54,298 nucleotides of DNA from Hydrurus foetidus (lineage: Eukaryota): NCBI GenBank assembly GCA_900617105.1, contig UYFQ01000148.1, positions 1-54,298 of the forward strand, written 5' to 3'. Numbering within the stretch: position 1 is the stretch's first letter; every line of letters starts with the position of its first letter. Shown here piece after piece: positions 11,779 through 47,743 of this stretch. The notes under the pieces were generated by a model. It did no database searches, was not told where the DNA came from, and was given only the letters and a program-made list of their open reading frames with translations. Made by a program: the position numbers and the translations under genes.

Positions 11779-11959
11779 TTAGAGGATGCCGATGCGGCAG
11801 TATAGGTTCTCTGGAGCGGCAAGGAGCAAGGACCGCTGACCGGAGCGAAGAAGCAATTGCCTGCGAGACAAGCTTGTCAATTACTCTTTCACTCGACACA
11901 TTACTCGCATAAATATTCGATTTCGCGAGCTTAAAAGAAATACCTTTGCTTTTTCATCA
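11779..11959 (+). repeat. Split direct repeat A1 (181 bp)
   Basis: Identical by eye to 17770-17950; ends on the A of the ORF1 ATG. Confidence 0.95.
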
Positions 11960-13560
11960 TGGAGGCAGCGTCATCAGTAGTCGAGTCGGGAGTGCATCTC
12001 CCAGCATATGAATTGATCTCTGGAGATCTGCTAAGACAAATTGAGCACGCTTCATCAGTAGTGACAACTTCAACGGACGAACTGGGTGAATTTTACGCTA
12101 TGGCGATGGCCGTCTCAGTCACCGCAACGTTGGTGGTAGACAGTTCGATAATCATCGTTCCTTTATCTCCTCCGGGAGATAATGAACAGATCGACTTCAC
12201 CTTTTTGGCCGGCAGCAAATCGATGTTCGTCAAGCTGCACGATACGCCGCAACCGAGGATGACCTACGGGCATGTTGCATCATATTCCGCTGGAACGGTC
12301 GTCAAGCCCTTTCAAGTAGGAACACTGGTCAAATTCGCGTCTCCGATCAACTTCGTAGTCGCAAAACAACGACTCGTAATGGCTATCAGTAATGCAGCGG
12401 GAGCAGAAATTGATTTGCGATCGGAGACGGTGCAGCCGGGAATCAAACGGGCGTGCATACGACAACTGGAAACGGGGGGCGAGTTGGTCGAGGATGCCGG
12501 AGAGAAACTCAAAGGTACGTTTACATACCTGTTGGATCTCGATGGGGTAAAGCATATGACCAGAAACAAGACGGAAATACCGCAGAGGGAAAGAGACCTT
12601 TACTTTCTATTCCGCGCTATGGACAACAGAAGATGGGACTACAGCATAAGCACGGACTTGGTGCTACAAACAGAACAGTACCGAAGTATGGTGTGTGAAC
12701 AGGGCGATACCCAGTCTGAGGATAGGCATATGGCCTTCGAGTCGTGCGGCCTTATCAGCCGGGTTCAGAAACTTCGACTCTTTCAAGAAAAAGATAAACT
12801 GAAACTGCTTCTAACTGGTTCAGTCTTGGTTGAATGCACCACGGATCCTACCCTCACTTTGCAAGACTTTACTATTGAGGAAAAGATATCTAATAAGACA
12901 ACTGCTTGCCCAAGCAACAACATTGGTATAATCCAGGCGATTAAAAACTTTCAGATTGTAATGCAGATTATTTTCTCGGATGCTTTTGCACAGTGTCTGA
13001 GCATTTTCATCGACAAACTGGAAGGAGTTTCCCGACCTATGGAGGTGGTTGCGGCGGACTTCCTGAGATACTCCATCGAGTTAACTCTGAGAAAATTCTT
13101 CAGAGTGGTTAGGTCTGTTAAGTCTACGGCATTTCCGGATTATTCCCTACATACCCCGGAGCTTTGCGCGATGTTTTTGACTGCGCTCTTTGGGAAGTTG
13201 GTGGTGGATTTATCGGATCCCCCGACCATGATGAGACAAGAAGCATATTATCGCTTTCGATTGGCTAGAAGTAGCGAAATGGCTGTCACAGTTACACCTT
13301 TAAAAACCAAACTCCCTGGCGACAAAACCAAAGAGGAGCCAAAAGCAGCTCAATTGAAGCCCTGCTCAGCGCACTTAGGGTTCCAGCTATCAGCCGTGAG
13401 GAAGGATGGCCGTCCTTACACCTGCAGCCACGGGAAAGACTGCACCTACCGACACATTAGTATCTTAGGGAAGTCGAACCAGAAGCTTATCGACCTCACC
13501 GCGTCTATGCCACCAACAATACGGGCTGAGCTGAGGAAGGCGATTGATGGGCGCAAATGA
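11959..13560 (+). CDS. ORF1, gag-like protein (533 aa) with a C-terminal CCCH-type finger
   Basis: First ORF of the YR element; C-terminal CSAH...CSHGKDCTYRH motif. Confidence 0.8.
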   Translation: MEAASSVVESGVHLPAYELISGDLLRQIEHASSVVTTSTDELGEFYAMAMAVSVTATLVVDSSIIIVPLSPPGDNEQIDFTFLAGSKSMFVKLHDTPQPRMTYGHVASYSAGTVVKPFQVGTLVKFASPINFVVAKQRLVMAISNAAGAEIDLRSETVQPGIKRACIRQLETGGELVEDAGEKLKGTFTYLLDLDGVKHMTRNKTEIPQRERDLYFLFRAMDNRRWDYSISTDLVLQTEQYRSMVCEQGDTQSEDRHMAFESCGLISRVQKLRLFQEKDKLKLLLTGSVLVECTTDPTLTLQDFTIEEKISNKTTACPSNNIGIIQAIKNFQIVMQIIFSDAFAQCLSIFIDKLEGVSRPMEVVAADFLRYSIELTLRKFFRVVRSVKSTAFPDYSLHTPELCAMFLTALFGKLVVDLSDPPTMMRQEAYYRFRLARSSEMAVTVTPLKTKLPGDKTKEEPKAAQLKPCSAHLGFQLSAVRKDGRPYTCSHGKDCTYRHISILGKSNQKLIDLTASMPPTIRAELRKAIDGRK

Positions 13561-14016
13561 CTATCGTATACGCCGGCGGTGCAGTTCGTCGGTAAGTGGA
13601 GAGGCTGACTTGTTTATCCATCGGGTCGATCTTGTGATCGACAGCTTGTCGTGCACTCATGCGTTTGTGTGTTGACTATGAGTGGTACCCGACTCTGCTG
13701 TTCAGCGGGAGCCTCTAAGTTCCTGCTGCCGATACCCCGACAGAACTGATCCTTCTGTTTGACTGAATAACGCTCACGTATGCAGTCATATGTCATAAGG
13801 CTAATGAAACCGGGTAGTCTGACATAACAGACTCCTCTGCATATGCATTAATGCTGTTTATCGTCACATGACACCCTGACTAAAAGGGATTGTTATTATG
13901 TCATGTGACTGTAACGCCGGTATTTTGCACCTGCACATGAGTGCAGTGCTTTGCCGTTTACTCTCCCAGTTGCTAACTGCAGCGACTAATCCACGATACC
14001 CTCGATCTGATATTGA

Positions 14017-16248
14017 GCAGGGTGTGAAGAAAAAAGGTCCGTTTTAGTGGTGGAGGTGAGAAGGGATAAGGAAAGGGAATCACGAAGCATACTTCACACC
14101 GACAGGGGGAAGACGAGTGAGGTTGGGACTAACTATGGAGCTGACTCCAGGGACATCGCCCCAGTGATCAATAAATGGGTAGCAGCGTGCTTCCCCCAGG
14201 GGTCCCAATCAAGCGAGGAGGATCTTCAGGAGTTGGTTCAGGAAGCAGCCGATGCTGCAAGAGATGACTACGATGCGAAATCAGCAGTAGTGTGGGCCGA
14301 GGGATACGAGTTTCCTGCCCGATATCTACAGAGTGATGTGGCATGCCTTAAAGCTGCCCAATTAGATTTCGAGACGATGGTGCGACGTCGATTGAAGATA
14401 CTGTCGCCTGATAGATTAAGCAAGGAAAGGGTTGAGAAGCTGCGACCGGATAACCCGGAGCGTCGGCTCATGTTCGACCTAGTTGTAGGAATGAAAGTCT
14501 TTCGTCCAACTGGCTTCGTTGCGAATGGGTCCTTACCCAGGACGCCTCTACGGAGCACGTACGAAACCGTAGCTCCCGCAGTCAACAAGATGCTGGGTGC
14601 TGTAGTTGAGCAGCGTTTAGCTTTTCTTCTCCCTTTAGAGCTAGCGCAGCAACACGTTCGGGACTTGCACTTGTGCAAAGCCCATTGGACCACAAAAAAG
14701 GGGAAGGCATCAGGCCGACCCCTGGGTGATCTCACTTTCGTAGACGGCACCCCACTGAATACAGATGAGACGGCCGAAGCCGCAATGGAGTATTATGGAA
14801 GGATATCCCATCCAACAATTGAGGACATAGCGAGGATGATTTACGAATTCTGGATCGCTGAAAGCACGCGGGACCCGCGGTTGAGTAGGCAAGACTTGCG
14901 TATCTGGAAAATGGACCTTAAAGGGGCCTACACTCTGCTGTCATTCAGACCAGAGGATGTGGGCCTCTTCGGGATGTTGCTTACTGGCGACCTCGTCTAC
15001 TTTCAACTGGCAGGAATATTCGGCTGGTCAGGCACCCCCGCAGCGTTTCAAGTTGTAACGCGTGCAATATCTTGGGAGCTAAAGCATGCACTGCGGAGCC
15101 GTACCCTAATGTACGTAGACGACATCATCGGTGTCTGTTTTGCAGAGGATGTAGACACGGACCTAAGAAAGACCCGGGATATATGCACGAGCCTGTTGGG
15201 GCCAGGCGCTGTCGCGGACGACAAGACAGAAGTTGGGACACGACTTGATGTCATCGGTTACACGGTGGACTTAGTGACGGAGCGAGTATTGATCGCTCGA
15301 AAGAACTTCCTGACTGCCTTACATGGATTTATCAGCACGGATGTTCATAATAGAATCAACCTCCGCACGGCCCAGCGATTAGCGTCCTGGGGCACAAGAT
15401 ACGGGAAGATATGCAGGGTGATGCGGCCATTTTGTACGGCGCTCAACCGTGCAACTTGGGGACGTACCGATCCTCACGCCCTCTTTTCTATACCCACAGA
15501 GACAATTGTGGCAATACAGTGCTGGAGGGCCATGTTATGTCTCGTCCGGTATCGCGAAACCGAATTCACCAGAACTCTCGAGTCGTTCGCACCAGCAACA
15601 CCAGTGATAATAGTTGAGTTTGACTCTTCCCTGAGCGGAGCTGGGCTGATTTGGTTTCTTAGGCATAACGGCACAGAGGTAGCAATGGGTGTCAGTGCCG
15701 TTGACTTGTCCTTTCTCGCATTCGGAGAGGACTCATCGTTCCAGAATCTGTCCGAGTTTATTGGAGCAATCCTAGCCGTGATCGGACAGATAATGTTAGG
15801 ACTGTCAGGACGCAGCCTAGCCCTCAGAGGAGATAGCGTAACAGCCCTTACATGGGCAATAACAGAGAGACCAAGAGGGTCCATTGTGACGAACGCATCA
15901 ATGGTGTGGATCCTACTCTGCGTCGCCACAGAGATCGATGTAAGAGAAGTCATTCACATCGCTGGGAAGGACAATGGAAAGTGCGACAGATTATCTAGAA
16001 GAGGAGTAGAGCCAAAAATGTCTGTCATGGATGAGGCAGCAGATATGGGAATCACTGGGGCTGCAGTTGTAGAGATCAACGGACAAGAGGCAGTGATCAA
16101 TATTCTACTGATGTGTGACCCTAGAACCGTACTCACGTCAGAGTCAGACTTCGTTGCTTTTTGGACAAAAACAAGGAGCGCCATCAGCAACTTTCTCATC
16201 CTGTATCCCTCATGTAATACTAACCCAAGAGGGTTACAAAAGTACTAA
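14017..16248 (+). CDS. Reverse transcriptase-RNase H (frame open from 14017; true start uncertain, probably spliced)
   Basis: KMDLKGAY, FGWSGTPAAF, YVDD; RNase H EFDSSLSG, NLSEFIG, RGDSVTA, HIAGKDNGKCDRLSR. Confidence 0.93.
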   Translation, partial: AGCEEKRSVLVVEVRRDKERESRSILHTDRGKTSEVGTNYGADSRDIAPVINKWVAACFPQGSQSSEEDLQELVQEAADAARDDYDAKSAVVWAEGYEFPARYLQSDVACLKAAQLDFETMVRRRLKILSPDRLSKERVEKLRPDNPERRLMFDLVVGMKVFRPTGFVANGSLPRTPLRSTYETVAPAVNKMLGAVVEQRLAFLLPLELAQQHVRDLHLCKAHWTTKKGKASGRPLGDLTFVDGTPLNTDETAEAAMEYYGRISHPTIEDIARMIYEFWIAESTRDPRLSRQDLRIWKMDLKGAYTLLSFRPEDVGLFGMLLTGDLVYFQLAGIFGWSGTPAAFQVVTRAISWELKHALRSRTLMYVDDIIGVCFAEDVDTDLRKTRDICTSLLGPGAVADDKTEVGTRLDVIGYTVDLVTERVLIARKNFLTALHGFISTDVHNRINLRTAQRLASWGTRYGKICRVMRPFCTALNRATWGRTDPHALFSIPTETIVAIQCWRAMLCLVRYRETEFTRTLESFAPATPVIIVEFDSSLSGAGLIWFLRHNGTEVAMGVSAVDLSFLAFGEDSSFQNLSEFIGAILAVIGQIMLGLSGRSLALRGDSVTALTWAITERPRGSIVTNASMVWILLCVATEIDVREVIHIAGKDNGKCDRLSRRGVEPKMSVMDEAADMGITGAAVVEINGQEAVINILLMCDPRTVLTSESDFVAFWTKTRSAISNFLILYPSCNTNPRGLQKY

Positions 16249-16302
16249 TTAGAGTTGATCCCTTCATCTCCCCGCGCACTCCTTATATCCGCACAAACAC
16301 AG

Positions 16303-17489
16303 GTGGTAAGGGGCTTATCTCCCTTCAGAGCAAAAAGGACTTGTCGGCATTTATATCAGCGTCAGTGCTACCCAAGACGAACAAGGTGTACGATGGACAT
16401 TTTAAAATGTGGACAGAGTTTGTGAAGAGCGAGGTGGATGGAGATGATCCTTTCCTGAGGAACGTAGCGGAGGAAGAGAAAGCCTCCCTCGTGGGGCTCC
16501 TGATGCTGAGAAGGCATGAAGCCGGACACCGGGGGAAAGCAGCAACGTCCTTTACGGCAGGTGTGCGCTTGAGATTCGCACAGGAAACTCTTGACACTGC
16601 TTTCCTCGAATCGGCGGTGATAGCAACAGCAAGAGCGTCGAGTCGGATGAAGCCGGACGAACTACGGGCTAGGAAGGACAGTGGTCTGCAGAGCACGGTT
16701 AAGTTGCCGATATGCGAGAGCATTCTGACGGGCATGAGGGCGCTAATGTGGGAAGAACGTAAATGGGATGGTGTAGACATGCAGCTGAGAATGACGTACC
16801 TCGGTTGCATGTGGGGTTTTGAAATGGGGGCTAGAGTGTCGGAGTATACCCAGCCGGAGCCAGGAGCGGTTGACCACTGTGTCAGAACTGACGACCTGAC
16901 CTTCACGATCGAGGCGGGAGATCAAACGACAAGGGTGACCGGAAGTGCACTTGCTGCATTAGGGCTGCACCATTCAGCAAAAGGAATGAAACAGATCACT
17001 GAGTGCCGCGTTCGAACAGTGACATCAAAAGGGAAGGTAACGGTCAAGGATAAACTCGTCGCAAGAAGATCACCTGAAGAAGCACTATTCCTGGAAGATA
17101 TCGTGGGATTCCTGGTAAACAGCGGAGCAGCAGGAGAGGAGGAAATGCTGAGCTGCCGAAGACCGGATGGCAGCAGACTTGCACTGAGATCGAGGGCCGT
17201 ACGCGATGAGCTGAAGCGTACGTGCGAGAGAAATGGGCTCCCACCTACCTACTTCAGTTCCCATTCTTTGAGGAAGGGCGCCATCACACACATGCGCGCG
17301 CTAGGGGCAAGCGAGGACGATCGCAGAGACAGAGGAAACTATGCCCCAGGATCGCAAGTGATGAATAACACGTACGACTACGCCACTGGACTTGGGCCCC
17401 TGGCCTCAAACAGCCTTGTGGGAGGGTACAAGCCGAGTCTAAATGATGTGAAGCGCCTGATACCACCTGCCAGACAGGTCAAAAAGTAG
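16303..17489 (+). CDS. Tyrosine recombinase (frame open from 16224; putative splice acceptor at 16302)
   Basis: Catalytic motifs GARVSEY, TSKGK, SHSLRKG, RGNY...NTYDY (R-K-HxxR-Y). Confidence 0.92.
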
Positions 17490-17525
17490 CGACATGGTAC
17501 GGTCAGGTCCCCTCGAGTTAAGGCG

Positions 17526-17769
17526 GGTGAAGTGGAATCTGACCCACGGTCCTCCCCCTGACCGCAAACCCCGATTGCAAATGAAGGCAGCAGGGGCGGG
17601 GGATGGATCGTGAAGCCTATGGCGCGCAAGCGCGACCAAACGTAAGATAACAATACCTCTTATTTCGGAACATGTTTCTCTATATAAACTCTACACAACG
17701 TGCGGAGAACTAGGAGAAATAAATGGGGTATTTTCCCTAAAGGGACAGGGCGCCGATAGTGCAATAGAA
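17526..17769 (+). repeat. Split direct repeat B1 (244 bp)
   Basis: Matches 18037-18280 with one mismatch (17620 T vs 18131 C). Confidence 0.95.
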
Positions 17770-17950
17770 TTAGAGGATGCCGATGCGGCAGTATAGGTTC
17801 TCTGGAGCGGCAAGGAGCAAGGACCGCTGACCGGAGCGAAGAAGCAATTGCCTGCGAGACAAGCTTGTCAATTACTCTTTCACTCGACACATTACTCGCA
17901 TAAATATTCGATTTCGCGAGCTTAAAAGAAATACCTTTGCTTTTTCATCA
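17770..17950 (+). repeat. Split direct repeat A2
   Basis: Copy of A1 abutting B1 (junction AATAGAA|TTAGAGG). Confidence 0.95.
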
Positions 17951-18036
17951 CCCCGTAGCCAACCATTCCTTGTATCTCGTTTTTATATTTAGAATTATAC
18001 ATTTTGTAGTGTTGTCTGACCACTTGCGTGTCAGAT

Positions 18037-18280
18037 GGTGAAGTGGAATCTGACCCACGGTCCTCCCCCTGACCGCAAACCCCGATTGCAAATGAAGGCA
18101 GCAGGGGCGGGGGATGGATCGTGAAGCCTACGGCGCGCAAGCGCGACCAAACGTAAGATAACAATACCTCTTATTTCGGAACATGTTTCTCTATATAAAC
18201 TCTACACAACGTGCGGAGAACTAGGAGAAATAAATGGGGTATTTTCCCTAAAGGGACAGGGCGCCGATAGTGCAATAGAA
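18037..18280 (+). repeat. Split direct repeat B2
   Basis: Copy of B1, separated from A2 by an 86-bp unique spacer. Confidence 0.95.
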
Positions 18281-18518
18281 CCTCTCTAGAGGTAAATTTT
18301 ACGCTGAATAAAACGGTGGAATTCGTTCTGACGGATTCGCTGAAATACGAAACATCGGGCAAAAAGGATATTGGCTGTAAAAGTACGAAAAGCCGTCTTT
18401 TATCCACACTGGCAGGAAACACCCCACTTAGGGCCGGCGACTCTTAAATATATTGATGTTGTCGTTGTCGCACAGTTGTAAAATTGTTGATAGACATCTT
18501 TGAGTAATTGTCGCGGAG

Positions 18519-19294
18519 ATGAACGACCAGCCTACAGAGAGCATCATCGAGGAGAACGGCCCTTTCGCCGGCAATACCAGTGAAATCGTGTTCGCGCAAA
18601 ATCAATCGAACGATGATACTGCTGAAGGTCGAACAGTCGAAAATTTTTCGGAAGACGTAACGAATCAGTTGGTTGAAAGTCTCCTTGGATCCTCTTCAGA
18701 TGCTAACGCAACCAAAAATTATGACTCATACAACAGAATGGAGGGATGTTCGAGCGATGAAGAAAACCAGACTGACAATGATGACGACAACAGTGTCGAG
18801 AAGGAGGAAGATACTACACTGGAGCATCATTATACCGAGCTGCAAAACGACATCCCCGACTTTGGTGAATTCACAGCAGCATCCTTGAACACCTTGGAAA
18901 ATGTAACGATCGATATCAGCGGAACCGATGTGAATCTGGACCATGCTGCCTCTAGTCCTTCAGCAGGATTTGATGATAATCTTCAGGAAACAGGAATAGA
19001 CAGCGACAAAGCTTTGGCGAGTACGAATCATCACATCAATGCACCTAAGTTACATGCATCCCGGATTGGAGTGGAATCACAAAGCAACGATGAATCTCAC
19101 TGTTACGTGAGCATTCCCCCTTTAACTGCAGGTGCGTTAGCGTCGCCATTTCTGTGGGGCAAAATAACTTAATAAGCAAATTCTGAAGCTGCCGCTACGT
19201 ATTCGATGCAGAAAAAATTGCCATTATCAAGCAGGCTATGGAAGGTTTTACTCTTAGGGCGCCAACGAAAGGGAGATTCTCATCTGGCTCCTGA
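18519..19294 (+). CDS. Acidic host protein, possibly MEA1-like; join(18519..19131,19212..19294)
   Basis: ATG-started D/E-rich ORF. An 80-nt GT-AG intron gives the C-terminus IPPLTAEKIAIIKQAMEGFTLRAP, which from memory resembles the MEA1 C-terminal motif. The product call is weak. Confidence 0.45.
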
Positions 19295-29300: not shown

Positions 29301-29974
29301 AGGTCCACACAATATCGTTCCTGATTTCGCAGATATTGGCAGTGAGTGCAAGGAAGCTGAGTGGGTTAAATATTCCAAGATAACCGACTGCAATTTGTGA
29401 GAATGACCTCAAGCACAGATTATTACTTGTGAACATAAAAGCATGCGGAAAGCGTCTCAGAAAGCGCACACCAGCAATTTGGTATGAATACTACATAAAA
29501 GTTTGATGACATTCAAACAGGAAGTACTGAGTTCACTATATATTTGGATGTTGATCCTGCACAAATCTGAGCAGTTGAAAAAATCATAAAATTGGAGAAC
29601 CAGTTGTGAACATCTCCTCTTCCTTATCCCAAATAAAAATTTGCCGCATCGCTCGCTGCAATCGCTCACAAAACTGTAATTGCTTTCTCTAAGTGATTCA
29701 GGAACTACCTTTTAAACTGGTACTGACAAACTTGACGATTTCCTTGGCTGTGCAGCTCATCGAAGAAAAGCGCCGGATCTTTGATATCTTCCTCCCTCCC
29801 CCCAGATATACCGAGAAGAAGAAGTTTGATGAGAAAGTTCTCATCAGCAGCATTTTTTAGCAGGAGGAGATCAGAACATCTCATATAGCTCTGTACTTCA
29901 GCAACTACAGCATTCAGAGCAGGAATTTTAGTAGAGTCTGCCAGCACTGACTGATTTGAAAACGAATTACTCAT
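20312..29974 (-). CDS. UBR1: UBR1/UBR2/PRT6-type E3 ubiquitin ligase (N-recognin), multi-exon
   Basis: UBR box VCQYQFKR|NDIVWTCRDCQADETCVLCNVCF...H..H...GGC|CDCGD...FCSKH; AGLWRKNG; RING-H2 CIVC...CGHAMHYSC...FDCPLCK; C-terminal ALCLICG...FLLQ|DCTVLL...PTPYVDDYGE...RGKPLHL...LWASH in last exon 20536-20312. Confidence 0.92.
22732..22771. repeat. (CAACT)n pentanucleotide microsatellite in a UBR1 intron
   Basis: ctcaactcaactcaa..., about 8 units. Confidence 0.9.
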
Positions 29975-31352
29975 AATATTTCACAATCGGCGAACGTTGG
30001 CTTGGGATAGTCTCCTCCGGTAATTTCAGATTAAATATTAAGAGGAGTTCTGGTCACTTGATTCTGCAGGATACCTACGTTCATGTTGTTTCACACATTT
30101 GGCTTCTGTGTATTTTCAAGTGCAATCGAAATGACGTTGCTTATACTGAGTTTTTCTCTTCTGTGGAAAGTCCTAGAAAAGTGAGGTGCTAGATGGGGTT
30201 GTGCTGCTACTGACGGTCGGGAGTTTGAACCTCCAATTTTCACCCGTCACATTTGGAATTTGAAATGCATTGTTGGGATACACTTTGGAGATACTCGTCA
30301 CAGAGAACGTGATGATCACCCGAATACTAGCCTTCTTCACCTTCAACTGAGATCTCTGCACTACTGCAGATCATCTCAATCTCGGCATCGATAATCGATA
30401 GTGATCTCCGATCTGGGATCATCTTTGTCGAAGATCATTCCTTTTTAAGCGGACAGCGGCTACTTGAGTTTTGAAATGAGCAAGATGATGTCTGTGTAGG
30501 ACATATCCCTTGTAAACAAAATTCATTTTTGGGATCTAACTGGCGAGTAAAAGCTACTAACTTGAAGTAATAGACGAATTTAATCGAACTCTATCCCATT
30601 TCCTGGTTTTGCTTGTAGGGATGGAACGGCAGCTGTCATTTCACATTGCTGACAGTGGGGTATGTTACAGTAGCCTTTGACATCAATCCTGTTAAAGATT
30701 GAATTTTTTTGTAGGCGCACTTCAAAAGATCCATGATGCTTCCAATGACCGCAAAGAGGGCAATTTTTCATAGATCTTTCTGCTACCATACCGTTGGGAG
30801 GTCTTTCTTACCCGACACTTTCTGCACCTTCTGCGCAGTCCTCGAAAGATGCTTCGATGGGCTTGTTACGGAACCGCCGGAGTTCAGTTGCATTCTCTAC
30901 TGTGTTGTAAGTAACATAGGTTTGGAGATGCGAGGAGAAATAAAGGTTTAAGGTCCTTGGAAAAAACCGTGGAATGTCGGAGATTGGCATGGCCAATGGC
31001 CGACATACACCATATTATAGATATATTATACACTTGAAGACGTCTCGCTGGGCGCGGGCCCGTGGCCGGGCCCGATGAGACGGAATCTACCTTCAAAGAT
31101 TCAGCCAAAAAATATAAGAATTTCAGTGGCTGAGAGGTATCTGCGTTTATCTTTATCTAAACGCTGTTTATCGGTGTTTATCATCAGTCCAACGCTGTCA
31201 TCGTCAGAGTCCCACGTCCCGTCCCCTGACATCTCCCCCTCCGCAGCCGTCCCTTTGGGGAACGGCACCGGTCAGCGGCCCTTGCTCCCAGCCGCTCCAG
31301 AGAACCCATGCTACGAGCGGTAACCACTAACAGCGAACCTATACGAAAATTT

Positions 31353-32430
31353 TAGGGCTGGTGTCCAAGTCCGACTTTGTTGCACATTGTGCGACTGTGC
31401 GACCATACGGTGCGACCATGCTGTCGCACAGTCGCACAGTCGCACAAAAGTCGCACAGTCGCACAAAACTCGCACATTTTATCAATTTGAAGACTTTCCT
31501 GGACGATTCACTTCCTCAAACTTTCAGGAATATAGTATGTGCTAAACATGCCTTATTCACAGCTTTTTGATATAATGCAGCGACACTAGCCCTATAATAC
31601 CTAGCCCTCGGAATACCTTATTGGCTGCTGCATTTGATCCTCGTACCAAATCTCTACAGGGATTTGGGATCATGGATAAAACCAAGATTTGGTATGAGAT
31701 AAAGAGAATGATGACATCGATTGCAATTGAAAGGAGCGGGGATGTTGTTGAAGTTGTAGTGCCACTTGCAGTAGTAGATCCGGATGATATATTCTTCGGC
31801 ATTGGTGATAACACTGACAATTCTGTTGATGATAACCCCAACGATGCTGATATAAGGATAAACACAGAATTGGACATTTACAGAAATATGAAGGGATTGA
31901 GTGCCAAGCTATCTGGGGATGTCTTTTCCGATCCACTAAGTTGGTGGCAAATCCACGAGAAAACGTTGCCTTATCTTAGTACCCTAGCGCGCAGGCTTCT
32001 GTGCATACCTGCGACTTCAGCACCATCTGAGCGAGTATTTTTCGTTGCTGGACAAACTATATCCAAATGTCGTACATCTGTACAACCACAGCATGCTTCC
32101 GACCTCATCTTTCTTCATGACAGCTCGAAACTAGCCGAGGAATGTGAGGCAGAGCACAAGAGAAAATTATGATTCCACATCGCTTTTTATCACACATATA
32201 ACATTTAATATTTTTGCCCAAAACTTCTCAATTTTCTATCTATTATACTAAATAATCACACTTTACCATTTTTGAGCCATTTCCGTGTTTTTGAGAGACA
32301 ATGTTCGACTTTCTTGTGCGACTTATAAAATAGCGCTTTTGTGCGACTTTGTCGCACAGTGCGACCGACTCTTTCCTGTCTGTGCGACTGTGCGGTGCGA
32401 CTCTAATTTTTAAGTCGCACACCAGCCCTA
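31353..32430 (+). mobile_element. hAT transposon internal-deletion derivative
   Basis: TIR TAGGGCTGGTGT/ACACCAGCCCTA; 8-bp TSD GAAAATTT (31345-31352 and 32431-32438); many subterminal GTCGCACA/TGTGCGAC motifs. Confidence 0.95.
31621..32172 (+). pseudogene. hAT transposase C-terminal dimerisation-domain fragment
   Basis: AAFDPRTK...DPLSWWQ...LPYLSTLARRLLCIPATSAPSERVF. Confidence 0.9.
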
Positions 32431-33408
32431 GAAAATTTCTAGATACCGATCGATCACGCAACTCCTGGAATTTTTGTGAGCGAGACTTTGGGTCATCACG
32501 CAACTATGATGCTACTTCCTTTTTTATATTAGGTGACGGGTGGGGGGGAAGAAGTCTAAAAAGTTGCGTGATCGAAAAGTATTTCCGCACAAGGCCGGTT
32601 TTTGAAAAGCGCGGTTTTGTGCCGGTTTTGCTTTCGTGCCCCACGATTTGGGTGCAGCGAACGGAAAAGCGACCGTACGAAAGCTGATGTTTTCATTTTC
32701 GGTCGCTTTTTAGCCGGTTTTTCGGTCGCTTTTCGTTCGAAAATTCTCGTATAATTTCGCTGTAAGTTTAGTGGTTACCGCTCGGTAGCATGTGCACGTG
32801 AACGGCTATTTGTGCAAGACCCCTCACTCAAGCGTGGAATTTAAGTAAACGGTGAAAACGGTGCTTTTTAACAAAATCTTCTGTCTACCACCCTCTGTTG
32901 CTACCCTCTGCTACCTACTGCTACCCTCTCCAATCTTCTTCTACCTACCGCTAACTACTGCTGCTGTTGCAAGAGTAGCTACAGCTGCTGCTTCTGCTGT
33001 CGTCTCTCTCCATAGCTGGGTAGCTATAGAGAGTTGTTGTCGCATATTGAAATCGTGCAGTGCACTTTGCTTGCGATGGCATCAATCACGACATTCATCG
33101 AGTGCTATATTGCTCTCCAGCAGAATCGCATGCAACCCCATCTGATTACTCTCATAACATCTAAAGGAAGAATAACGATTTCTCTCAACATTATTCTTTC
33201 CTTTGGTAACATCACCGATGTTAATCTGCTCCTAGAGTATGAAAGGCTGTTGAAATCAAAAAACAACTTTGTATTTACATCTCTTATATCACTAATCTGG
33301 GATAAGACTCCCAGAGGTGTTAAACTGAGGTTGAACTTCGACTTAGATGTGTCAGAGATCCGTTTTCGTCAGCTTCTTGACTACCTAGAGACACCGGCAC
33401 CTCAGATT

Positions 33409-33612
33409 CTAGATAAAGCTGACGAAGGCATCAATGATGAAGCACCTGTTGGTGAAGTTCTAGATGAAGCTGATGACGGCATCAATGATCAACCATCTGT
33501 CGGTGAAGTTCTAAATGAAGCTCATGACGGCATCGACGATGAAGCACCTGTCGGTGAAGTTGTAGATGAAGTTCATGACGGCATCGATGATCAACCACCT
33601 GTCGCTGAAGGA
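33409..33612 (+). repeat. 4 x 51-bp in-frame tandem repeat (17 aa, LDEADDGINDQPSVGEV-like) in an unassigned ORF ending at 33636
   Basis: Units start at 33409, 33460, 33511 and 33562, with alternating DEAP/DQP variants. Confidence 0.85.
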
Positions 33613-34185
33613 AATGTCTCTGTCCCTGAAGGTTGATTCGAGCAACACAACTACAAGCAACCAGAGTTGATTCAATTCAGTCTTTAAAACAGCAGAGCTA
33701 ATTTTGCCAATTTGGCAGAATTGAAGCGGAGGAAACCTCTGAAGTAGTGTCAGCATATCCAGTGCAAAATTATAGCGACAGCAACGGCATATCCATGAAG
33801 ATGAACTCAAAAACTATCAACTAAACTTTTGTATAAGCCAACAGACAGTGAGAGACAACTTCTTTTTTCACGAAGTTTCCAATCGCGATCGAGCTTTGGA
33901 TTGACATTGAACAATGTCTTCGGGAGCATCTCGCCAGAGGAAAACACCTAAGTCGGTGGGTTTCAGTGTTAGTCAAGTTGATCACTTCTGTCTTTCGACG
34001 AGTTTTTGAGATAACTAAGAGCTTGCAACCAAAATAACTTTTGACAACTGGACCTGATAAAGGGAGTGCTCCGGAAACGATTGTGCTACCAACGAGGTCT
34101 GGAGCTCAAGAATTGGCTGATATCTGTCGATAGACAGAAAAGTGATTGTTGATGGAATTCGAAGTCTCTTATATTACCGTGCGAC

Positions 34186-34857
34186 TTACACAAATAGCCG
34201 TTCACGTGCACATGGGTTCTCTGGAGCGGCTGGGAGCAAGGGCCGCTGACCGGTGCCGTTCCCCAAAGGGACGGCTGCGGAGGGGGAGATGTCAGGGGAC
34301 GGGACGTGGGACTCTGATGATGACAGCGTTGGACTGATGTGCAGCGGGGTCGAGTCCCCCTAGCCACTGTAGATTCACACTACTTCTCTCGAATTCATTA
34401 TTTTGCACTTTTTCAAATTATTATTTAGTATTTAGCATGCCTGCTCGTAGTCGATGCTCTACACTGAGAGCGTTGTATCACAACTTTTTGATCAGTCTCA
34501 GTATTCTTAATCTAATGCGTTTTTATTTGCCGTGGCCAACCAATCCTACTATGTATCTAGCGACAGTATAAGATGTTATGTAATGCTATCTGACCACTTG
34601 CGTGCCAGTTAGTGAAGGTAACTCTGACACAGGGTCCGTCCCGGTACCCTAGCTTGGTTCGGCAGTCCGAACAACAGATTGGGTGGACGGGTGAGCTCAA
34701 GTGCGCGAACGCAGCCACTTTGTAAGATAACATTGCATTACATGTACGTTGTGTGTTAGTTGAAGTGTGGACCCAATTTGCAGTGGAGTACCCAGAGGAA
34801 GAGAACACCCCAGGATCATTCCCCCTAAAGGGGCCTATCTCAGACAGCGGAATAGAA
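34186..34857 (+). mobile_element. Solo A-spacer-B module of a related YR-retrotransposon family
   Basis: Starts TTA and has the A stem-loop; TCTGACCACTTGCGTG (34589) matches the spacer at 18015; GTGAAG..TCTGAC..GGTCC, GTAAGATAACA, CCCTAAAGGG and terminal AATAGAA follow in the same order as in B2. Confidence 0.8.
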
Positions 34858-35099
34858 CACACGGTAAATATATTATTCATCCCATCATCTAAACTCTGAC
34901 TTTTGCAGTGGCCTCCGACAGCTACTGTAGAAAAGTGCTTTACGCGGCGAGCATCTTCTGACATATCTGTTCCTCCATGACTCCGCAGCAATGGCAGTGG
35001 CAGTGATGATTTGACTGAGACCTGGGGATATTTTGGAACCGTATTCAAGTTATTTATCAACTGGACATCTTTACAACATTGAAAGCAGACCCGAAAAGA

Positions 35100-38000
35100 A
35101 TGGCTGGACGTGGACGAGGAAAAACATTGCCAGCATGGATGACAAATGGAGATGCAAACCTCTCATCATCGATCCCAGCCATATCGAATGCACCGGCGGT
35201 GGGGCAGTTCAGTGATGCACGAGAATCATACTCAGCTGACCATCCACCACGGGATGCACCAAATATGGGACACTTCCAAACTCCAAACAACAACAGGGAG
35301 CAATATAGCACAGGACCATCTTTTGGAAGTAGAGACATGTTCCCGATGCAACCTAATGTTAGAGACTCAACATCTCATCATGGGCAGAGTGGTCATGGTC
35401 CAGCCCCCCCACAAGGTCCTCCGCCGAGAGCGGCTGGGCGCTACGATATGCCACAAGTAAATTCATCTATTATGCCACCAAGGCCAGCGATGCAAATTAA
35501 TCAAGATTATTCTGCAATTCAAGGCAGCCTTGGTCAATACACAACCCAACCACAGATGAATATCGCATCAGGGATGGGAGCTGGAATCGCGCCAATGATG
35601 GGTTTCCAGCAGCAAATGCAGCATACACAACCCATTCAATTGCAGCATTCACAGCCTCAACAGCAACAACTATTCCAGCAGCCTCACTTACAACCTACCC
35701 ATCAATTTGCTGTTCCGCAGCAACAGCAGCAGCTACATCAGCCTCTACAGAACCCCATAATGAATGCTGGACCTGGAATGGGGTCGGGCATGGGATTAGG
35801 GATGGGAATGGGGATGGGTCTTCAGGGCCTTCAGCAGCCACCCGCCTTCTCGGTGGGGAGGGGAATGCCAGTACAGCTACCGGCTAATGTTGGTCTGGGA
35901 CCTGGTGGGATAGGAATGCCAGGGGCCTTCCCACAGCCCATCGGTAGGGGGTTACCTTTGGCTCTGCCACGGGGACCCGCACCAGCCGTGACTCCTGCAG
36001 CTGTCGGAGATCCCAATAACGAAGTCAGCAGCTGGTCGGAGCATGAGGCGGAGGACAAGCGCAAATACTGGTACAACAGGGTCAACGGTACGAGCACGTA
36101 CGATAAACCGTTCTGTCTTAAGACCCCTGAAGAACGGTCCATACCGCCCTGCAAGTGGAAAGAATACACGGCTACAGACGGTAAGAAGTACTACAGTGAC
36201 GGCAAGGAATCTAGCTGGGCTGTGCCTGAGGAGTTTAGAATATGGAAAGAAAAAATGGATGCTATTGAAAGGAAAAAACAAGCAGCTCTCGTGCCGACCA
36301 GCTCGACAACTAGGGACGTGAACCACACTGTGCTCACTACTGCCACTTCTCAATATGCGGAGACGCACAGTGCTGTACCTTCAGCTGCTGTCGTAAATCT
36401 GTCCACTGCGGTGAGTGTGGTCACCAATGGGAACATCAACGGAAACAACAATAGCAATGGTAACGGCAATGGCAGCAGCGGACAAGGCAGCGCAAACAAC
36501 ATCAGCACGAGTGTGAGTGCGAGCACAACCAGTAGGAAAAGGCCTGTAGAGGAGGAGGAGCAGAGGCCAGCCGTGGTCTATGCCACAGCGGAGGAAGCGG
36601 TGGAGGCTTTCAAAGCGATGCTCACGGACAGAAAGGTCAGCTGGAATCTCTATCCATCCCTCGAACGTGATCCATACCTGATCTCTATCTTCTGTCTTTT
36701 GCTGTTTCTCCTACTTTCTTCCCTTCCTCCCTTTGCCAGGTCTTGACGACTATGAAGATGAAGGAGGTGCAGGATCTGTGTCAGAACGACCACCGCTTCA
36801 ACGCCCTCAAGTCGGGGGGCGAGAAAAAACAAGCACTAGCTGAGTATCAGGTGAGAACTTCCTGCATTGAGACGTTGATGTGAGTGTCTCATAACTGTTG
36901 TGAGGAGATATTGGAGTAGGAAGAGAGAGCGTGGGGAGAGGGAACGGAGTCACTCTATGGGTTAGATTAGATCGAATTGGAAAGGGACATCTTATCACAT
37001 CATTTGGCAACACTAAGTCTCACTGCCTGATTGCGTTACCTCGCCCCGTCATCCCATCCCATCATGGACGCTTAGACCAAGACGCTGAAGCTCGAGAAGG
37101 AGGCGCAGAAATCGAGGGCGAGGAAGAGCAGAGACGCCTTCCTGCTCATGCTCGCTGAGAACACGGGTATCGATGTGCGCACCACATGGCGGGCAGCGAT
37201 TCTGCTGCTGCAAGAGGACAGCAGGTACAAGAACGTGGAGGACCCGCATGACAGGGAAGACCTCTTCAACGACTTCGTGTCGGAGCTGGAGAAGAAGGAG
37301 AGGGAGGACAGGAACAAGCAGAAAGACACCGCACTTAAACTCTTGAGCGCCTTGTACGAAGAGCTGCTGGGCAAATGTGAGTCAAATCTGTCGGTCATAC
37401 CTGCTGTGAGTGCCTTGCTCTCCTTCAATGAACAGATTCATTCTGTGATGAATGAATTTGATTGCTCTGCTCTGCTTTACAGCGCTGCTGCACAGACGGT
37501 CCTCTTGGTCTGACGAGAAGGATGACATTCTGAAGCTGGTTCGTGGCCCAGAATACCGCGCCCTCGACGACATAGAAATTAAGAGGGCGTTTCAAGACTT
37601 CGTGAGCAAGCTGGAGAAGGCGTATAGAGAGGAGGAGAGGCTGAAGAAGCAGGAGTTACAGAAGAAGGTGGACCTGCTCTCCGTCACACTCAAAGCTGCG
37701 TTTGAGAAACTGGGATTCGAGGGTGTCCTCACTCCTGCCTGCAGATGGAAGGACTGGGTCAAGCGACCAGAAGTCACTGACAACGCCTGCTACCAAGAGA
37801 TAGAACTGTTAGTGAATGGTGGAGGAGAGCTTGACAAGGACAGGGAGGGACTTATAGTGGAAGGCACGGAGAGAAGTGAGAGGCTAGAGCGACTGGACAA
37901 AAATGAGATCATTGCGTCCGGCATGTCCAACAGCTCCAGGAATGTGTTCGAGGATGTGGTGAGCAGCATCAAAGCAGGATACAGCAAGGACAGACGGCTA

Positions 38001-39132
38001 ATCAAGGATGTGCTGGAAGAGAGGAAATACGTCATAACTCACGATAGCACGTACGAACAGTACATCGCGCAGCTCTCCTCAGCTGCTGGGGTGTTTCTAG
38101 TCACAGCCTCAACATCAGGCACAGAGAACTGCTCAGATGCAGACATCGCTCATGTTGATAGAACTCGAGAAAGTGGCCGGACTACTGAAAAAATAGAAAA
38201 CGCTGGAAAATCTGATGTGAAATTAGAGAGGAGCACCAGCAAGGGGGACTCAGACACAGGAAAGTCTCTGCAAGCCATTATGGAGCTGAGGCCCAAGAAT
38301 GCATTGGTATACTTCAACGAAATCCATAACGAGGTGCAAGCTGTGTATGACGAGGAGCGAAAGAGAATTAAAAGAAAAGAAGACAAGTTCATCACTCTGT
38401 TGCAGGACTTCTACAACCGATCGGATCACGTTGGCACAGAGTGGGAGGATGCAAAGAAAGAGCTAGGACGATATTCTGAATACGAGAACTTGGCGAGAGC
38501 AGATAGAAAGAGGTTGTTCACCGAGTACATGACGGGGTTGGAGGAGATGATGAAAGTCAAAACGAAGTCCCTGCACGACTCCATGCTGAGCGAAGTGGAG
38601 AGATCTCGAGAACACTCGGAGAAAAAGGCAGAGATGAGTGCAGAAAGACATCCTGAGGCGGAGAAGGAACTAGAGAAAGCACGTGAGGTAGATGACAGAA
38701 GGGACGGTAGGAGGCATAAAGGAGATAGAGAAGGAGAGGACAGGGATAGAGGCAGGGACAGAGATGAACCCGTGAGAGGTAGAAACGACCTCGATGACAG
38801 AGAAGGGGATAGAGATAGAGACAGACACAAGAGTGGTCGCGAGTTTCAGAGCAGCAAAAGGGACAGAGAGGATAACGACGAGGAGGATGGCGAAGAGGAT
38901 GAAGAGGGCCAGGAGGACTCAAAAAAAACAAAAAAACATAAGAAGGAAAAGTCGTCAAAAGACAAAGGAGATAGGGACAGAGACAGAGATAGAAAACACA
39001 AGAAGGTGAGATGTCTAGTCATCATGATATCCTTTGATAGCGAATTTGTCTTTCTGCAATCCCATCTGAAGCGCCATCCCATCTCTTCCCCTCCCTCCTA
39101 CCTGTCCGCAGCACAAGAAGGACGACAAGTGA
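35100..39132 (+). CDS. PRPF40: Pre-mRNA-processing factor 40 (two WW domains, FF repeats, RD-rich tail), multi-exon
   Basis: WSEHEAEDKRKYWYNRVNGTSTYDKP and WKEYTATDGKKYY...SSWAVP; FF repeats (EAFKAML, REDLFNDFV, RKRLFTEY); last exon 39112-39132 HKKDDK*. Confidence 0.9.
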
Positions 39133-40106
39133 CGGCGGTCCAGGACGCGCTTTGTGTCTAATAAGATGCCTGATGAGGCCTTCCACCGACAGCTGTTCAT
39201 CTCAAGTCGCAACCCATGCTACGCCATGCTGTAAGATGCGGTGGTACGAATGTGTTTGGTTTGATTGTGATGTTCACTCTTCTGCCTATTACCGATCACA
39301 TCAACATCATGTGAGCAAGGATGGAAAGTTCTGATAGAGATAATGGAATGGAATAGGATAGGACGGGATGAATCGAGTCTCCTCGCTCCATGGGACTTCT
39401 ACCGGACCCACACCGACCATCCGTCTGTCTTGTCTATCTATCTGTCTGTTTGTTTTGTGGCGAAGGCACTTTATTTTAGCACATGCAAGGCATCACTTGC
39501 CAGTGTCATTCCTTCTGTCGCTCTGCTACGTTCTGCCCTATGCTGAATCGTGTCTCACTTACCGATCCATCCATCCTTATTCTACGATATTATTTCGTTT
39601 ACATAAACCACTTAAAACTTCCCAGCAACGCACTTTATTACTTTTTAAACAACGTAGCAAAGTCAAGGAGTTGAGACCAAGCAGAAATGCTGCCTCATCA
39701 ATTGAGCTGGTTTGTATCTCGCGCGACACTGCATGCATGCATGCATGCATGTATGTATGGATAGAGTGGGAAGGTCAGTCAGTCAGTTCTAATGATCATC
39801 ACTAGTGTCAGTCAGTCTTAGTAATAGGTGTCCTGTCCTGTCCTGTCACCGAGTCCATGACTCGTCGATGCGATGTGCAGTGGGAGCAGTGCATAATGCT
39901 TCACAGCCGACGAAAGGTGAACAGACTTCAACAGGTGCGGCAGACGGATAGACAGTGCGAAGAATGTAGCTCTTCTCTGCTTTCACCACTGTCGCTGCGT
40001 CGTATTCTGTTTTCGTCTTCTCGAAGGCATGACTGTGTGTTTGTCTGCATGTCCGCCCGTATCCATCAGTCTTTCTTTGCAACGATTACTTTTCTGTATC
40101 CATCAG

Positions 40107-42311
40107 TCAGGTGTATTGCGTCCAATCATAGGTGCTCCATGCAGTCGAGAACTCCGCAGCGTTCTTCCTGTCGGCCTCTTCTTGGACAGATTCGTGTCGG
40201 TGACTCCCCTTCCTACCAGCCCTCATATCCTGACATGGCGACAATAGTCAGCAAATGTGAGTTTAGCAATTCTTCGGTGTGAGTGCGTTAGTGCTGTAGG
40301 GACAGTTGAGACCTGGAGGCACACATAGACGGGACAGAGAGAGAGAGAGATGCAAGACAGTAAGTGAGTTGGGTGTGGTTGGTATTTACCAGATCTAACA
40401 TCCCTGCTACCACATCAAGGCAAAAATCTTTTTTTATTTTGCTCGCATCCTCCACAGCGTGGGCCATTCCTATGACGTCAGTTGACTCCTCTTCACCCCA
40501 CTCCACTGCGAGGTACTCCCAGTGGGGGGGCACTCCTCTGCGAAGAGGTCGGGACCGGGTCAAGTCGATGACCTTCCGGTGAGAAGACCACTCCTCGTCA
40601 CTGGAGCTGAACGCCTAACACGAGGAATGTCGAAGTAAGTCAGTGGTCATGTGTTACAGCGAATGAGATACCTCATTACGCACGAGAAGAACCTATTCGA
40701 TTCTCCCGATGCAAGTAGTTGTCAACACTACAGTGGTGAATGATGATATGATAGCAGACGACAGCTCACCTCTCTAAAGCACATCTTCGCCTCCCCTTCT
40801 ATCCCCGAAGGGACTGGCACCACATCGATGCATGCGTGCGGATGTCGTCCGAATTCGAGTGCGCTCTCTAGGAAGAGCACCGCTTGTCCGTTTCGCTCGT
40901 ACATTCTTCGGAGACAGCTCTTGTATCGCGAGATTTCCAAGTCCACTTCCTCCTCGCACTTCAGGAACGAAGAGCTGTGGCTGAGGGGGACGATGACGCA
41001 GTGTCCGCTGACCAAGGAGTGCTGCCCAGCCTTCAACCTCAGCATCGTGTGCTGCGCTGTCGAGACGGTAAGGTAGGGCTTGTACGCAGCGCTCTCCGTG
41101 CAGTGAGGACACCGCCTCAGGACCTCTCGCTCCTTCTCAGTGCGCTTTTCATTTTCGCATGGTGGCTGCTTTCTATTTTTACTTCCTATGCTCTTGAGAG
41201 TCTGTTTTTTACTTCGCTTTCCTTCATCGTTTTCATGCTTATTTTCGAAAAGTTTCATATCGATGTCTTCCTCTTCATCAGCCCCAGTCATGTTTCCATT
41301 ACCAAATGCGCCTGATGTACCGAGCTCCGTCCCCTTATACCGACTTCCTAAACGTAAGACATTGTCGCGAAAGATGTCGTCCATATTTTTACCATCTAAC
41401 TTTTCAGACTTCATGAGTTGATTAATTCCCAAATTATTTGAAGCATGATCCCTTGAAGTGCTTCGAACACCTTTTTTAGCCAGTTCTATGCTTCTGTCGT
41501 GACTGTTGTCATTAACGAGTTTCTTCAGTGCTTTATCGCGGGTGAGCTTTTCGTTCTCGGAAACAATTGCGTGTTCAATATCACGTTCGTCGTCCTCAAT
41601 TATTTGGGATAACGATCTTATTTCAGACTGAGAAACCTTGTCTTTCAATTTTTTTCTGAAGAGAGCTGCTACTGACTGATTGGATGCTACGTTGGCAGCA
41701 ATAGACTCGACTTTCGGGATCTTCGCATTGTGTTCGCGCACAGTTTCATGAATATCTAACTTCGACGTATCTCTACAATGTTCAACCTGGTAAGACTTTC
41801 CCCGATTAAATTCAACATCACTATCGAGCGCATCATGCTCGTATGCCGAGTTATTCATATGATTAGCATTTGGTGGTTCTGATTTCAACGATCCTATTAG
41901 AGTCGAGAAACTTGATTTCTGGCGCAATTGACTGCAACGATTTAAATTCGTGTCGCCCAGTCGCGGTGAGCTTGTTCTCGAATCTCTCATCTCTCCTGAC
42001 GGAGAAAGTTCACTGGCACTGTCTTGCATCGATTTCATCTCATTTTCGTATCTGCGAAAATCTTTGAAGTCACCATCGTCATCATCATTATTATCGCTGT
42101 CATCACTGGATGATGATCCACCCAGATCATCTTTCAAGGTAAGAGATGGGTTTATTTTATCGTCTTTGCGACTTTTCTTCCGTCCTGAAGATTTTTTGCT
42201 CTTATGATCTTTTACTTTTCGTTTCTTTCCACCGTTTCGATCAGACGTAGTTTTGATGGATTCTACTTGCTTGGACCTTGGGATGAAGACAATTCCTTTC
42301 AGCAGGCTCAT
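40107..42311 (-). CDS. CWF19L2: CWF19-like protein 2 (CwfJ C-terminal domains), 3 exons
   Basis: CPHC...GHCVIVPLSH...VLFLES...HACIDVVPVP...FRE|AFSSSDEEWSSHRKVID...GMAHAVE...|...FSTAWSTYDWTQYT*. Confidence 0.9.
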
Positions 42312-42497
42312 CGTGGAAGATCACCTTAGTCACTTGCGCGATCTGAAAGATACCTCCCAAACCCAGATCGAGATTTTTTCGATAGCAGTGGACGGTGTTC
42401 CATGTTTCATGAGACATGACGAGTGATGTTTCGTGACGGAGCTCGCAAGAAGTTTGGAGTTCGAGGCGTTCGAGTTCTGGGTTCCGAGTCGAGTTGG

Positions 42498-42984
42498 TTC
42501 TATTCCTTTGCATTCCGGCCGCTACCCGGTCGAATGATACCGTACCTCCCGGCGAAGGGGTTAGCTTCTCAAACACCCTTAAGACCGGTGAGGTGCACTT
42601 GATAACGGGCTGTTAATTAACCAATGTGAATTACCCTACAAGTGGCGTCACTCGTGCGCCAGCTAGTGCCCACCCACCCTATCCGTGTAGCCGCTGACTC
42701 AGTCGGCTGCGCTGGTATAGGATGGACCGTGGACCCAGAAAAGCCCTTCATCCACAGCTACCTAGGGCGCTCCTGATGGTCATCTCATTCCTGTTGGCCA
42801 TGGTCTCCGCTGCTCATATGTATTTGTCATGAAGTCATGGGATTCCGCCGCTTGCTTCCCCCTGACCCTATGGTCGTCCTTGATGATACTACAGATTTTG
42901 TACGACCCGTTACCGACAGCTCTGACCCAAAGTCCTGTCTTGCTCCCATCTCGCTTGGGGACACTCAGCAGCTCCTCATCGTAA
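42498..42984 (-). mobile_element. Probable solo A-spacer-B module of a third YR-retrotransposon family (5' boundary uncertain, 42984-43022)
   Basis: Minus-strand motifs in order: TGGGAGCAAG (A loop, near 42939-42948), TGAAG..TCTG..CCACGGTCC (42750-42724), long stem, GCCACTTGTA, ATCATTC, terminal GGAATAGAA|C at 42498. Confidence 0.6.
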
Positions 42985-44655: not shown

Positions 44656-44991
44656 ATGGGAGGTTGTGTTGTGTCTGATGGGTGCGGTATAAAATGCGCG
44701 CATTTTCGACCAGATGATGATTCAAGTGTGATTTGCGGATATTGCAATCACGACATCTCGGCCCACTCTATCCATGGTTTCATTCAGGATGGGAAAGTTC
44801 AGGTCTTACCCTCGGCTGTAACTGAACCAAATATTGCTCTGCAGGTCCCCAAGGATAGCACCGACGAAGAGAGAAAACAACTCTTCAGGACGAAGCAGAA
44901 AGCCACCGTGAACAACAAGAGAAAAAGTTCTGGAGACCAAATCGATTCGAGGAGATCTGTTGGCGGGCGGAGTACACAGTCTCCACCATGA
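44656..44991 (+). pseudogene. Accessory ORF of the IS3EU-like element with an N-terminal Cys/His cluster (probably truncated)
   Basis: MGGCVVSDGCGIKCAHF...ICGYCNHDISAH. Confidence 0.45.
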
Positions 44992-45234
44992 GCAAGGAAT
45001 ATGATGCTGAAGATGATCATGATGGAGCGTAGAGACCCGGTCCCGCAAACGGACTTTGATCATTTGGAAATGAATGAAAACTGTGAATTCAATTATCACT
45101 TAACAACCTTAGATAGTTTACATCGATTTCTTTCTTAATAGTGTCCTATGGTGAATTCTATGCTAAAAAATGATACTTGTTCACTAGATCAACCAACAGG
45201 TCCCTTAAACCTACCCATATTGGTCAGGCAACTA

Positions 45235-47728: not shown

Positions 47729-47743
47729 GGTCCCCCACTCTAT

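Follow-up and report, generated by a model that had tools for sequence, protein, structure and literature searches.

Insertion at defined positions upstream of genes is known in compact genomes from Tf1, which targets Pol II promoters, and from Ty1, Ty3 and TRE5-A, which target Pol III genes. Copies of the short element SIRE located 5' of some ribosomal protein genes supply a splice acceptor. Tf1, Ty1 and Ty3 carry an integrase with a known tether, unlike the tyrosine recombinase (YR) elements described here in a 54,298-nucleotide stretch of Hydrurus foetidus DNA (contig UYFQ01000148.1, positions 1 to 54,298; the window). This window contains an intact Ngaro-type YR retrotransposon and three partial copies, and three outer ends face predicted start codons of host genes, a pattern that we tentatively read as promoter-proximal preference.

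Site choice in the DIRS order, to which Ngaros belong, is largely open. The published preferences that we have found, in the parts of the sources covered here, are for the element's own copies (DIRS-1 of Dictyostelium; PMC5633606), telomere repeats (TATE of Leishmania; PMC6681497) and endogenous virophages (Ngaros of Cafeteria burkhardae; PMC8547959). DIRS-1 is a YR retrotransposon like the present elements, and one relative outside the window (L016, see below) resembles its habit of inserting into own copies, but DIRS-1 differs in its inverted repeats and its methyltransferase domain (PMC3266345). Promoters are not reported as targets of DIRS-1 or TATE in the parts covered of PMC5633606 and PMC6681497. 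TRE5-A is of the endonuclease/integrase type with a known tether (PMC5633606). Ty3 and TRE5-A have a Pol III gene as neighbour, whereas the window contained 0 tRNA genes and 0 Rfam matches, and tRNA (Pol III) targeting was rejected on this ground.

The four Ngaro types of C. burkhardae, with their family-specific site preferences, are like the intact element in their A1-ORFs-B1A2B2 order, their length of about 6.5 kb, their Gag-like first open reading frame (ORF1), their reverse transcriptase (RT)/RNase H and their YR with H-x-x-R and Tyr, as well as in having solo AB modules. They differ in favouring endogenous virophages and their intergenic DNA (of the 51 Ngaro rows in supplement 1, the first 30 list virophage insertions), and the part of that study covered here gives no host start-codon distances (PMC8547959). 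SIRE, the A2-B2 part of VIPER in Trypanosoma cruzi, is a solo A-spacer-B unit like the module at 34186-34857, although VIPER represents another clade than Ngaro (PMC6681497, in part). The closest precedent for a gene-proximal bias in tyrosine-recombinase integration is CryptonF-1_cRei of Chlamydomonas reinhardtii, whose new insertions are enriched at gene-proximal intergenic DNA and 5' untranslated regions; unlike the elements of the window, it is a DNA transposon with no RT and with a 5-bp CAYCG target, and fixed orientation or distance is absent from the part of the report covered (bioRxiv 2022.05.23.493040).

The initial annotation of this DNA knew of no DIRS-order equivalent of promoter-targeting elements. 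Literature searches likewise brought up no DIRS-order retrotransposon described as targeting Pol II promoters, a weak negative because coverage of the older Ngaro, PAT, kangaroo and TOC1 literature was poor. With CryptonF-1 as a gene-proximal YR DNA transposon, an oriented, fixed-distance bias for a tyrosine recombinase would be unheard of, but gene-proximal bias alone is not.

The intact element and its partial copies

The intact element was recognised by its split direct repeats and its frames (a slash marks a junction).

11779-18280, plus strand: intact Ngaro-type YR retrotransposon, A1-ORF1-RT/RNase H-YR-B1-A2-spacer-B2
11779-11959, plus strand: repeat A1, 100% identical to A2; ends on the first base of the ORF1 start codon; left junction AAC/TTA
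11959-13560, plus strand: ORF1 from the ORF list, 533 aa, Gag-like by position
14017-16248, plus strand: RT/RNase H frame with YVDD, seen directly; RVT_1 at E 0.044, below the Pfam cut-off
16224-17489, plus strand: YR frame; PF00589 Phage_integrase at E 0.0036, below the Pfam cut-off
17526-17769, plus strand: repeat B1, 99.6% identical to B2; internal junction AATAGAA/TTA, without C
17770-17950, plus strand: repeat A2
18037-18280, plus strand: repeat B2; right end AATAGAA/C, 239 bp 5' of ATG 18519

The order A1-ORFs-B1-A2-B2, with ORF1, RT/RNase H and YR following each other in one orientation, is the split-repeat layout by which Ngaros are defined (PMC8547959 and PMC3783388, in the parts covered). 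A methyltransferase domain, which separates DIRS1-like elements from Ngaros (PMC3266345, in part), was detected on none of the three frames with Pfam and NCBIfam profiles. Judged by their anatomy, the elements of the window are new members of the Ngaro kind. ORF1 gave no Pfam match and shares 49% identity with the ORF1 of a relative outside the window (L021). The YR residues R204, H347, R350 and Y384 were invariant in an alignment of 66 sequences, and the H-x-x-R plus Tyr motif suggests that they are catalytic. This recombinase belongs to a large and intact clade: of 7993 candidates scored, 231 were related to it at E <= 0.001, and no name among them was informative. The repeat identities and the open frames show that the element is very young.

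The RT frame lacks a Met for ~120 codons, and the first Met of the YR frame is at residue 62, yet the YR profile match begins at residue 29. Expression of these two frames by splicing is possible.

The remaining copies are incomplete, and one of them has been split by another transposon.

34186-34857, plus strand: solo A-spacer-B module; A 34186-34339, B 34611-34857; junctions GAC/TTA and AATAGAA/C
42498-43013, minus strand: recombinase tail (43013-42783, internally deleted) plus B repeat (about 42752-42498); ends AATAGAA/C
31182-32817, minus strand: A-only copy (32817-32789 + 31310-31182) of the same family as the 34.2-kb A; left junction GTC/TTG
31311-32788, unstranded: transposon with terminal inverted repeats (TIR) splitting the A-only copy; CATG duplication (4-bp); carries a nested hAT
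31353-32430, unstranded: nested hAT of 1.08 kb; 8-bp duplication GAAAATTT; PF05699

The B repeat at 34611-34857 aligned to that of the intact element at E 1.6e-6. For the 42.5-kb B, comparison with each window B alone was non-significant (best E 1.6), a profile built without any window sequence gave E 0.02, and a five-sequence profile excluding its own family gave E 1.1e-6, with 0 matches in the reversed-window decoy; the recombinase tail was matched at E 0.009 (among 2098 frame pieces). On these similarities we take both partial B ends (34.6 kb and 42.5 kb) to be real, and the proposed alignment of the two modules to YR element ends holds. The 42.5-kb end is not an A-spacer-B end, since the recombinase tail precedes its B and no A repeat was found on either side of the piece. 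The three B ends represent three families with little sequence in common. The A-only copy is 99% identical to the 34.2-kb A over 129 bp; the outer flanks of these two inverted A copies differ, and a single inversion bounded by them was therefore rejected.

A hairpin, TCTGACCACTTGCGTGYCAG, stands directly 5' of B2 at 18015-18035 and was also seen at 34590-34609 and at 1477-1495 of L021, being nearly invariant in three families that are otherwise diverged. A role as a signal for priming or packaging is possible; for tracing B2 and solo modules, it is the most suitable probe.

Distance and orientation to start codons

The insertions were compared with the following predicted coding exons.

18519-19172, plus strand: gene X, a conserved host gene (26 homologues), first coding exon
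35100-36746, plus strand: PRPF40-like host gene, first coding exon; WW domain, with an FF domain in a later exon
40728-42311, minus strand: CWF19L2-like host gene, first coding exon; CwfJ_C_1 domain
29708-29974, minus strand: UBR1-like gene, predicted first coding exon with a putative start
33076-33636, plus strand: candidate ORF 33076, putative, 186 aa with three 17-aa repeats

The B ends lie 239 bp from the ATG of gene X (18519), 243 bp from that of PRPF40 (35100) and 187 bp from that of CWF19L2 (42311), and all three are co-oriented with, and point at, the gene whose ATG they precede. Recomputation returned the distances originally given, and the repeats, the positions of AATAGAAC and the homologue-backed ATGs agree with the description of three B ends finishing in AATAGAA/C and facing start codons. 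The distances are taken to predicted start codons, with 1, 3 and 3 upstream ATGs, respectively, between the B end and the chosen ATG. The closest of the 26 homologues of gene X begin at the same Met or have read-through extensions. The N-terminus of PRPF40 (query residues 1-25 or more) was matched from residue 1 in 5 of 88 hits, most of the others being RG-repeat noise, and the CWF19L2 start was matched by one close orthologue cluster (1 of 9 candidates).

The A-only copy is upstream of and co-oriented with UBR1, as initially annotated, the UBR1 start being about 1.2-1.4 kb away (1208 bp beyond the stub). It is a split copy, and its insertion point lies 259 bp upstream of the ATG of ORF 33076 and points away from it. 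Since this ORF is nearer, co-orientation with UBR1 is not clean support. If ORF 33076 is a gene, all four insertion points (4/4) lie 187-259 bp from an ATG, with the orientation kept in 3/4; if it is not, the distance rule holds for 3/4 and the orientation for 4/4. Pfam, NCBIfam and Atlas searches with ORF 33076 gave no match, the predicted local distance difference test score (pLDDT) of its fold was 42.5, and its codon use is transposon-like (GC content at third positions, GC3, 0.36).

Under a uniform null over the 27.8 kb of upstream non-coding DNA, three of four insertion points within 250 bp and co-oriented would be obtained with P 2.3e-5, or 1.8e-4 without orientation. A rank null, which asks for the transposon in the slot nearest to each of the four genes and counts 4 YR among 10-14 elements (a rough count), gave P 0.003-0.015 with orientation. 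The three distances differ by at most 56 bp, for which a uniform distribution over 0-500 bp gives P 0.035. The position of the youngest copy, at -239 inside another transposon, has a 1-2% probability by chance, about 12 kb being equally neutral. Because this copy lies in neutral transposon DNA, purifying selection does not explain its position.

Junctions of the insertions

The motif AATAGAAC occurs at 18274, 34851 and 42504 (minus strand) and once more at 8100, there without B similarity. The left outer junctions read AAC/TTA, GAC/TTA and GTC/TTG and the right outer junctions GAA/C in 4/4, while the internal B/A junctions are GAA/TTA (window and L026) and GAG/TTA (L021). Only the internal junction was taken from L021, whose order spacer-B-A-ORF1 might reflect a circle junction, a tandem or a collapsed assembly. 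A C is thus present at 7/7 outer junctions (3/3 left, 4/4 right) and at 0/3 internal ones (P 2e-5 at a C frequency of 0.21). The minimal target rule is a C on both sides, through either a C/C target or a 1-bp duplication. As AATAGAA also occurs at internal junctions (window, L026), it is the element's own end and uninformative on targets, and its reading as a shared host target was rejected. Inspection of the flanks of the seven junctions revealed no longer common motif; with a C at outer junctions only, this indicates that sequence specificity is minimal. No empty insertion site was found.

The sequences on either side of the solo module make up an 8-bp inverted repeat (34174-34181 / 34860-34867) with the insertion at its centre (P 0.002 per random cut), showing that they were once one site. 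This repeat might represent a host factor site or a target like that of a recombinase. At the intact copy, the inverted-repeat arm measures only 4 bp (P 0.24).

The TTAA transposon around the intact element

The initial annotation placed B2 beside gene X at the correct 239 bp, but missed that the intact element is nested in another transposon.

9104-18443, unstranded: TIR DNA transposon with Kolobok-like termini; 27-bp perfect TIR; TTAA at 9100-9103 and 18444-18447

The YR element sits 163 bp from the right end of this transposon, so that 163 of the 239 bp between B2 and the gene X ATG are transposon end (18281-18443), and that end itself is only 76 bp from the ATG. Due to this nesting, B2 does not abut host promoter DNA. 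The nesting also cuts the other way, since the young element matches the other two in distance although selection should be indifferent to the DNA that it entered.

Once the YR insert is subtracted, the TIR transposon measures about 2.84 kb. We infer that both TIRs (9104 and 18443) belong to one element; a search for an empty copy found none. The interior (9652-10568) is 96% identical to a contig in the bacterial genome bin G001. The termini, TTAA/GA ... TC/TTAA, correspond to those of Kolobok, described as a TTAA duplication with 5'-RR and YY-3' termini (PMC9587614, in part). No frame >103 aa lies wholly within 9104-11778, and the two frames scanned for a Kolobok transposase gave no Pfam hit; the transposon is probably non-autonomous.

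In P0274, an orthologue of gene X, the read-through covers upstream DNA with the same TIR tip and TTAA. Beyond the tip there is no similarity (20 minimum changes over 13 codons, against a random mean of 21.9) within a read-through that extends only to -138. This difference behind the tip shows that the upstream region of gene X varies between relatives. Comparison of 18428-18455 with P0274 also indicates that the site 76 bp 5' of gene X may be hit twice by related TTAA transposons.

Relatives outside the window

The comparison material consisted of the window, protein relatives and a few eukaryote-type contigs within G001. The only B/flank junction found outside the window is in L016, from this bin, which holds a copy of the 42.5-kb end at 95% identity, again ending in AATAGAA/C. 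At 995-1010 of L016, two YR ends meet tail-to-tail around a single base (AGAA-G-TTCT); one of the elements apparently integrated within the B end of the other, a few bases from its tip.

Among 167 candidate stretches in prokaryote genomes, L016 was the single YR relative. G001 yielded 41 AATAGAAC matches, with a B end in L016 only (38 stretches profiled, and the contig C519 read). Outside G001, samples of 19, 401, 401 and 401 genomes yielded nothing; two pattern matches with 1 mismatch lacked A, B and YR similarity. A B-end pattern scan of metagenomes, made before the hairpin motif was recognised, returned 15 loci, 0/15 with YR, RT, ORF1, A or B similarity, and scans of viral contigs gave no relative. 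Nine contigs of G001 (C142, C283, C481, C519, C532, C538, C559, C612 and C723) contain eukaryotic transposon DNA related to the window, and relatives of both the CATG-duplicating TIR element and its nested hAT are present in the bin. At least nine short eukaryotic contigs in this bacterial bin are bin contamination.

Host genes and other transposons

The PRPF40-, CWF19L2- and UBR1-like genes are split by introns, which makes the window eukaryotic, and its four host genes are arranged as two tail-to-tail pairs. Similarity of gene X to its homologues stops near 19132, a likely splice donor. Pfam and NCBIfam scans of 18519-19172 gave no match; an acidic motif, MEGCSSDEE..TDNDD, is invariant across 14 aligned sequences. 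A sigma-70 promoter scan of the window, based on a bacterial model that is not meaningful for a eukaryote, stayed at chance level, and look-ups for exact matches to junction-spanning frames and to proteins of the window returned none.

Further transposons comprise two related Gypsy-type elements in opposite orientation (1414-4676 and 50735-53993, 73% identity), an AT-rich element with an Ulp1 protease frame (5200-8066), an element whose rva_4 integrase core is flanked by 47-bp inverted repeats (44362-47418), a foldback with 112-bp arms (47464-47728) and a Copia-type RT remnant (48297-50168).

Weighing the explanations

We favour, with considerable reserve, the reading that Ngaro-type YR elements show promoter-proximal preference, being steered to open DNA just upstream of genes. 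According to the published DIRS-order model (PMC3266345, PMC5633606, in the parts covered), the RNA would be copied into circular DNA, and the B/A junction of the circle would be recombined into a target C site. We propose that the recombinase would need little beyond the C at the join, and that chromatin access or a promoter-bound factor would then choose the site. Recombination of A by A or B by B, together with deletion, could have produced the solo A-B module, the recombinase-plus-B piece and the A-only stub, while some copies would take another route, into the ends of other elements. The preference is supported by the distal transposon-rich DNA: profile searches with A, B, ORF1, RT and YR found no further piece elsewhere in the window, the distal 27 kb included. 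In addition, 6/8 ends of the other TIR elements are >600 bp from any ATG. A fixed distance together with a fixed orientation is a stricter claim that we consider unlikely, and fixed orientation is not established. The same doubt applies to the most specific version, in which the Ngaro clade would be tethered to Pol II promoters in one orientation, at about -190 to -250 bp relative to the start codon, irrespective of the DNA there and with only a C needed, as the first promoter-targeted YR retrotransposon and the counterpart of Tf1/Ty3.

Several observations weigh against targeting and lend themselves to an explanation without it, namely that upstream gaps fill with transposons, that promoter-adjacent pieces survive deletion and that three YR ends were noticed by chance. 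We regard this as a serious possibility, only somewhat less probable than the preference. All P values are post hoc, the window having been chosen for the pattern; the rank null without orientation gave only P 0.04-0.12, and 3/3 co-orientation is only 1 in 8. All recognisable transposons of the window are in three 5' gaps of host genes (1-18518, 29975-35099 and 42312-54298), and two of the three YR ends are decayed pieces, as survival at gene edges predicts. Non-YR transposons end 76 bp from gene X and 288 bp from ORF 33076, and 2/8 ends of other TIR elements are within 300 bp of an ATG, counting that ORF; gene edges therefore attract or keep transposons generally. The A-only copy either lies at a distance of 1.2-1.4 kb from UBR1 or runs against the orientation of the putative ORF 33076 with its transposon-like codon use, and the B end in L016, tail-to-tail with that of another YR element, is not 5' of a gene (0/1 gene-linked outside the window). 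The originally proposed targeting in a fixed orientation survives in part: the clustering is hard to obtain under a uniform null, but the orientation is weakly constrained and the fourth copy may break the rule. What survival at edges leaves unexplained is the young intact copy at -239, the narrow spread of the distances and the absence of YR pieces from the distal 27 kb.

The L016 insertion at the B end of another YR element, the inverted repeat centred on the solo-module insertion and the location of the intact copy 163 bp from a TIR end would also fit a recombinase favouring self-like symmetric sites (element ends, short inverted repeats, transposon termini) that here are near promoters by coincidence, and DIRS-1 does insert into its own copies (PMC5633606, in part). 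We find this improbable, as the intact copy has only the short arm, the seven junctions share no motif beyond the C, and both flanks are present at two sites only. Still less probable, in our view, is co-option, with A or B serving as a host promoter, or B shielding the gene from upstream transposons, so that gene-facing copies persist. All three B ends face a gene, two of them are closely preceded by a co-oriented A repeat, and the 42.5-kb piece is reduced to almost B alone. At gene X, however, the end of another transposon separates B from the gene, the intact element is too young for a fixed module, the three B ends come from three families with little shared sequence, and P0274 has the same TIR tip and TTAA with unrelated sequence further upstream. 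The alternative offered initially, retention as regulatory modules, is weakened by this nesting and by the P0274 locus with its seemingly different transposon end.

Implications

If the rule fails, the intact element is simply a young Ngaro of the usual kind whose junctions follow a well-defined C rule. If promoter-proximal preference is true, chromatin or a host factor can direct a YR that requires next to nothing of the target sequence, as is the case for the integrases of Tf1 and Ty elements, and the tether, in ORF1 or in the N-terminus of the recombinase, would become directly testable.

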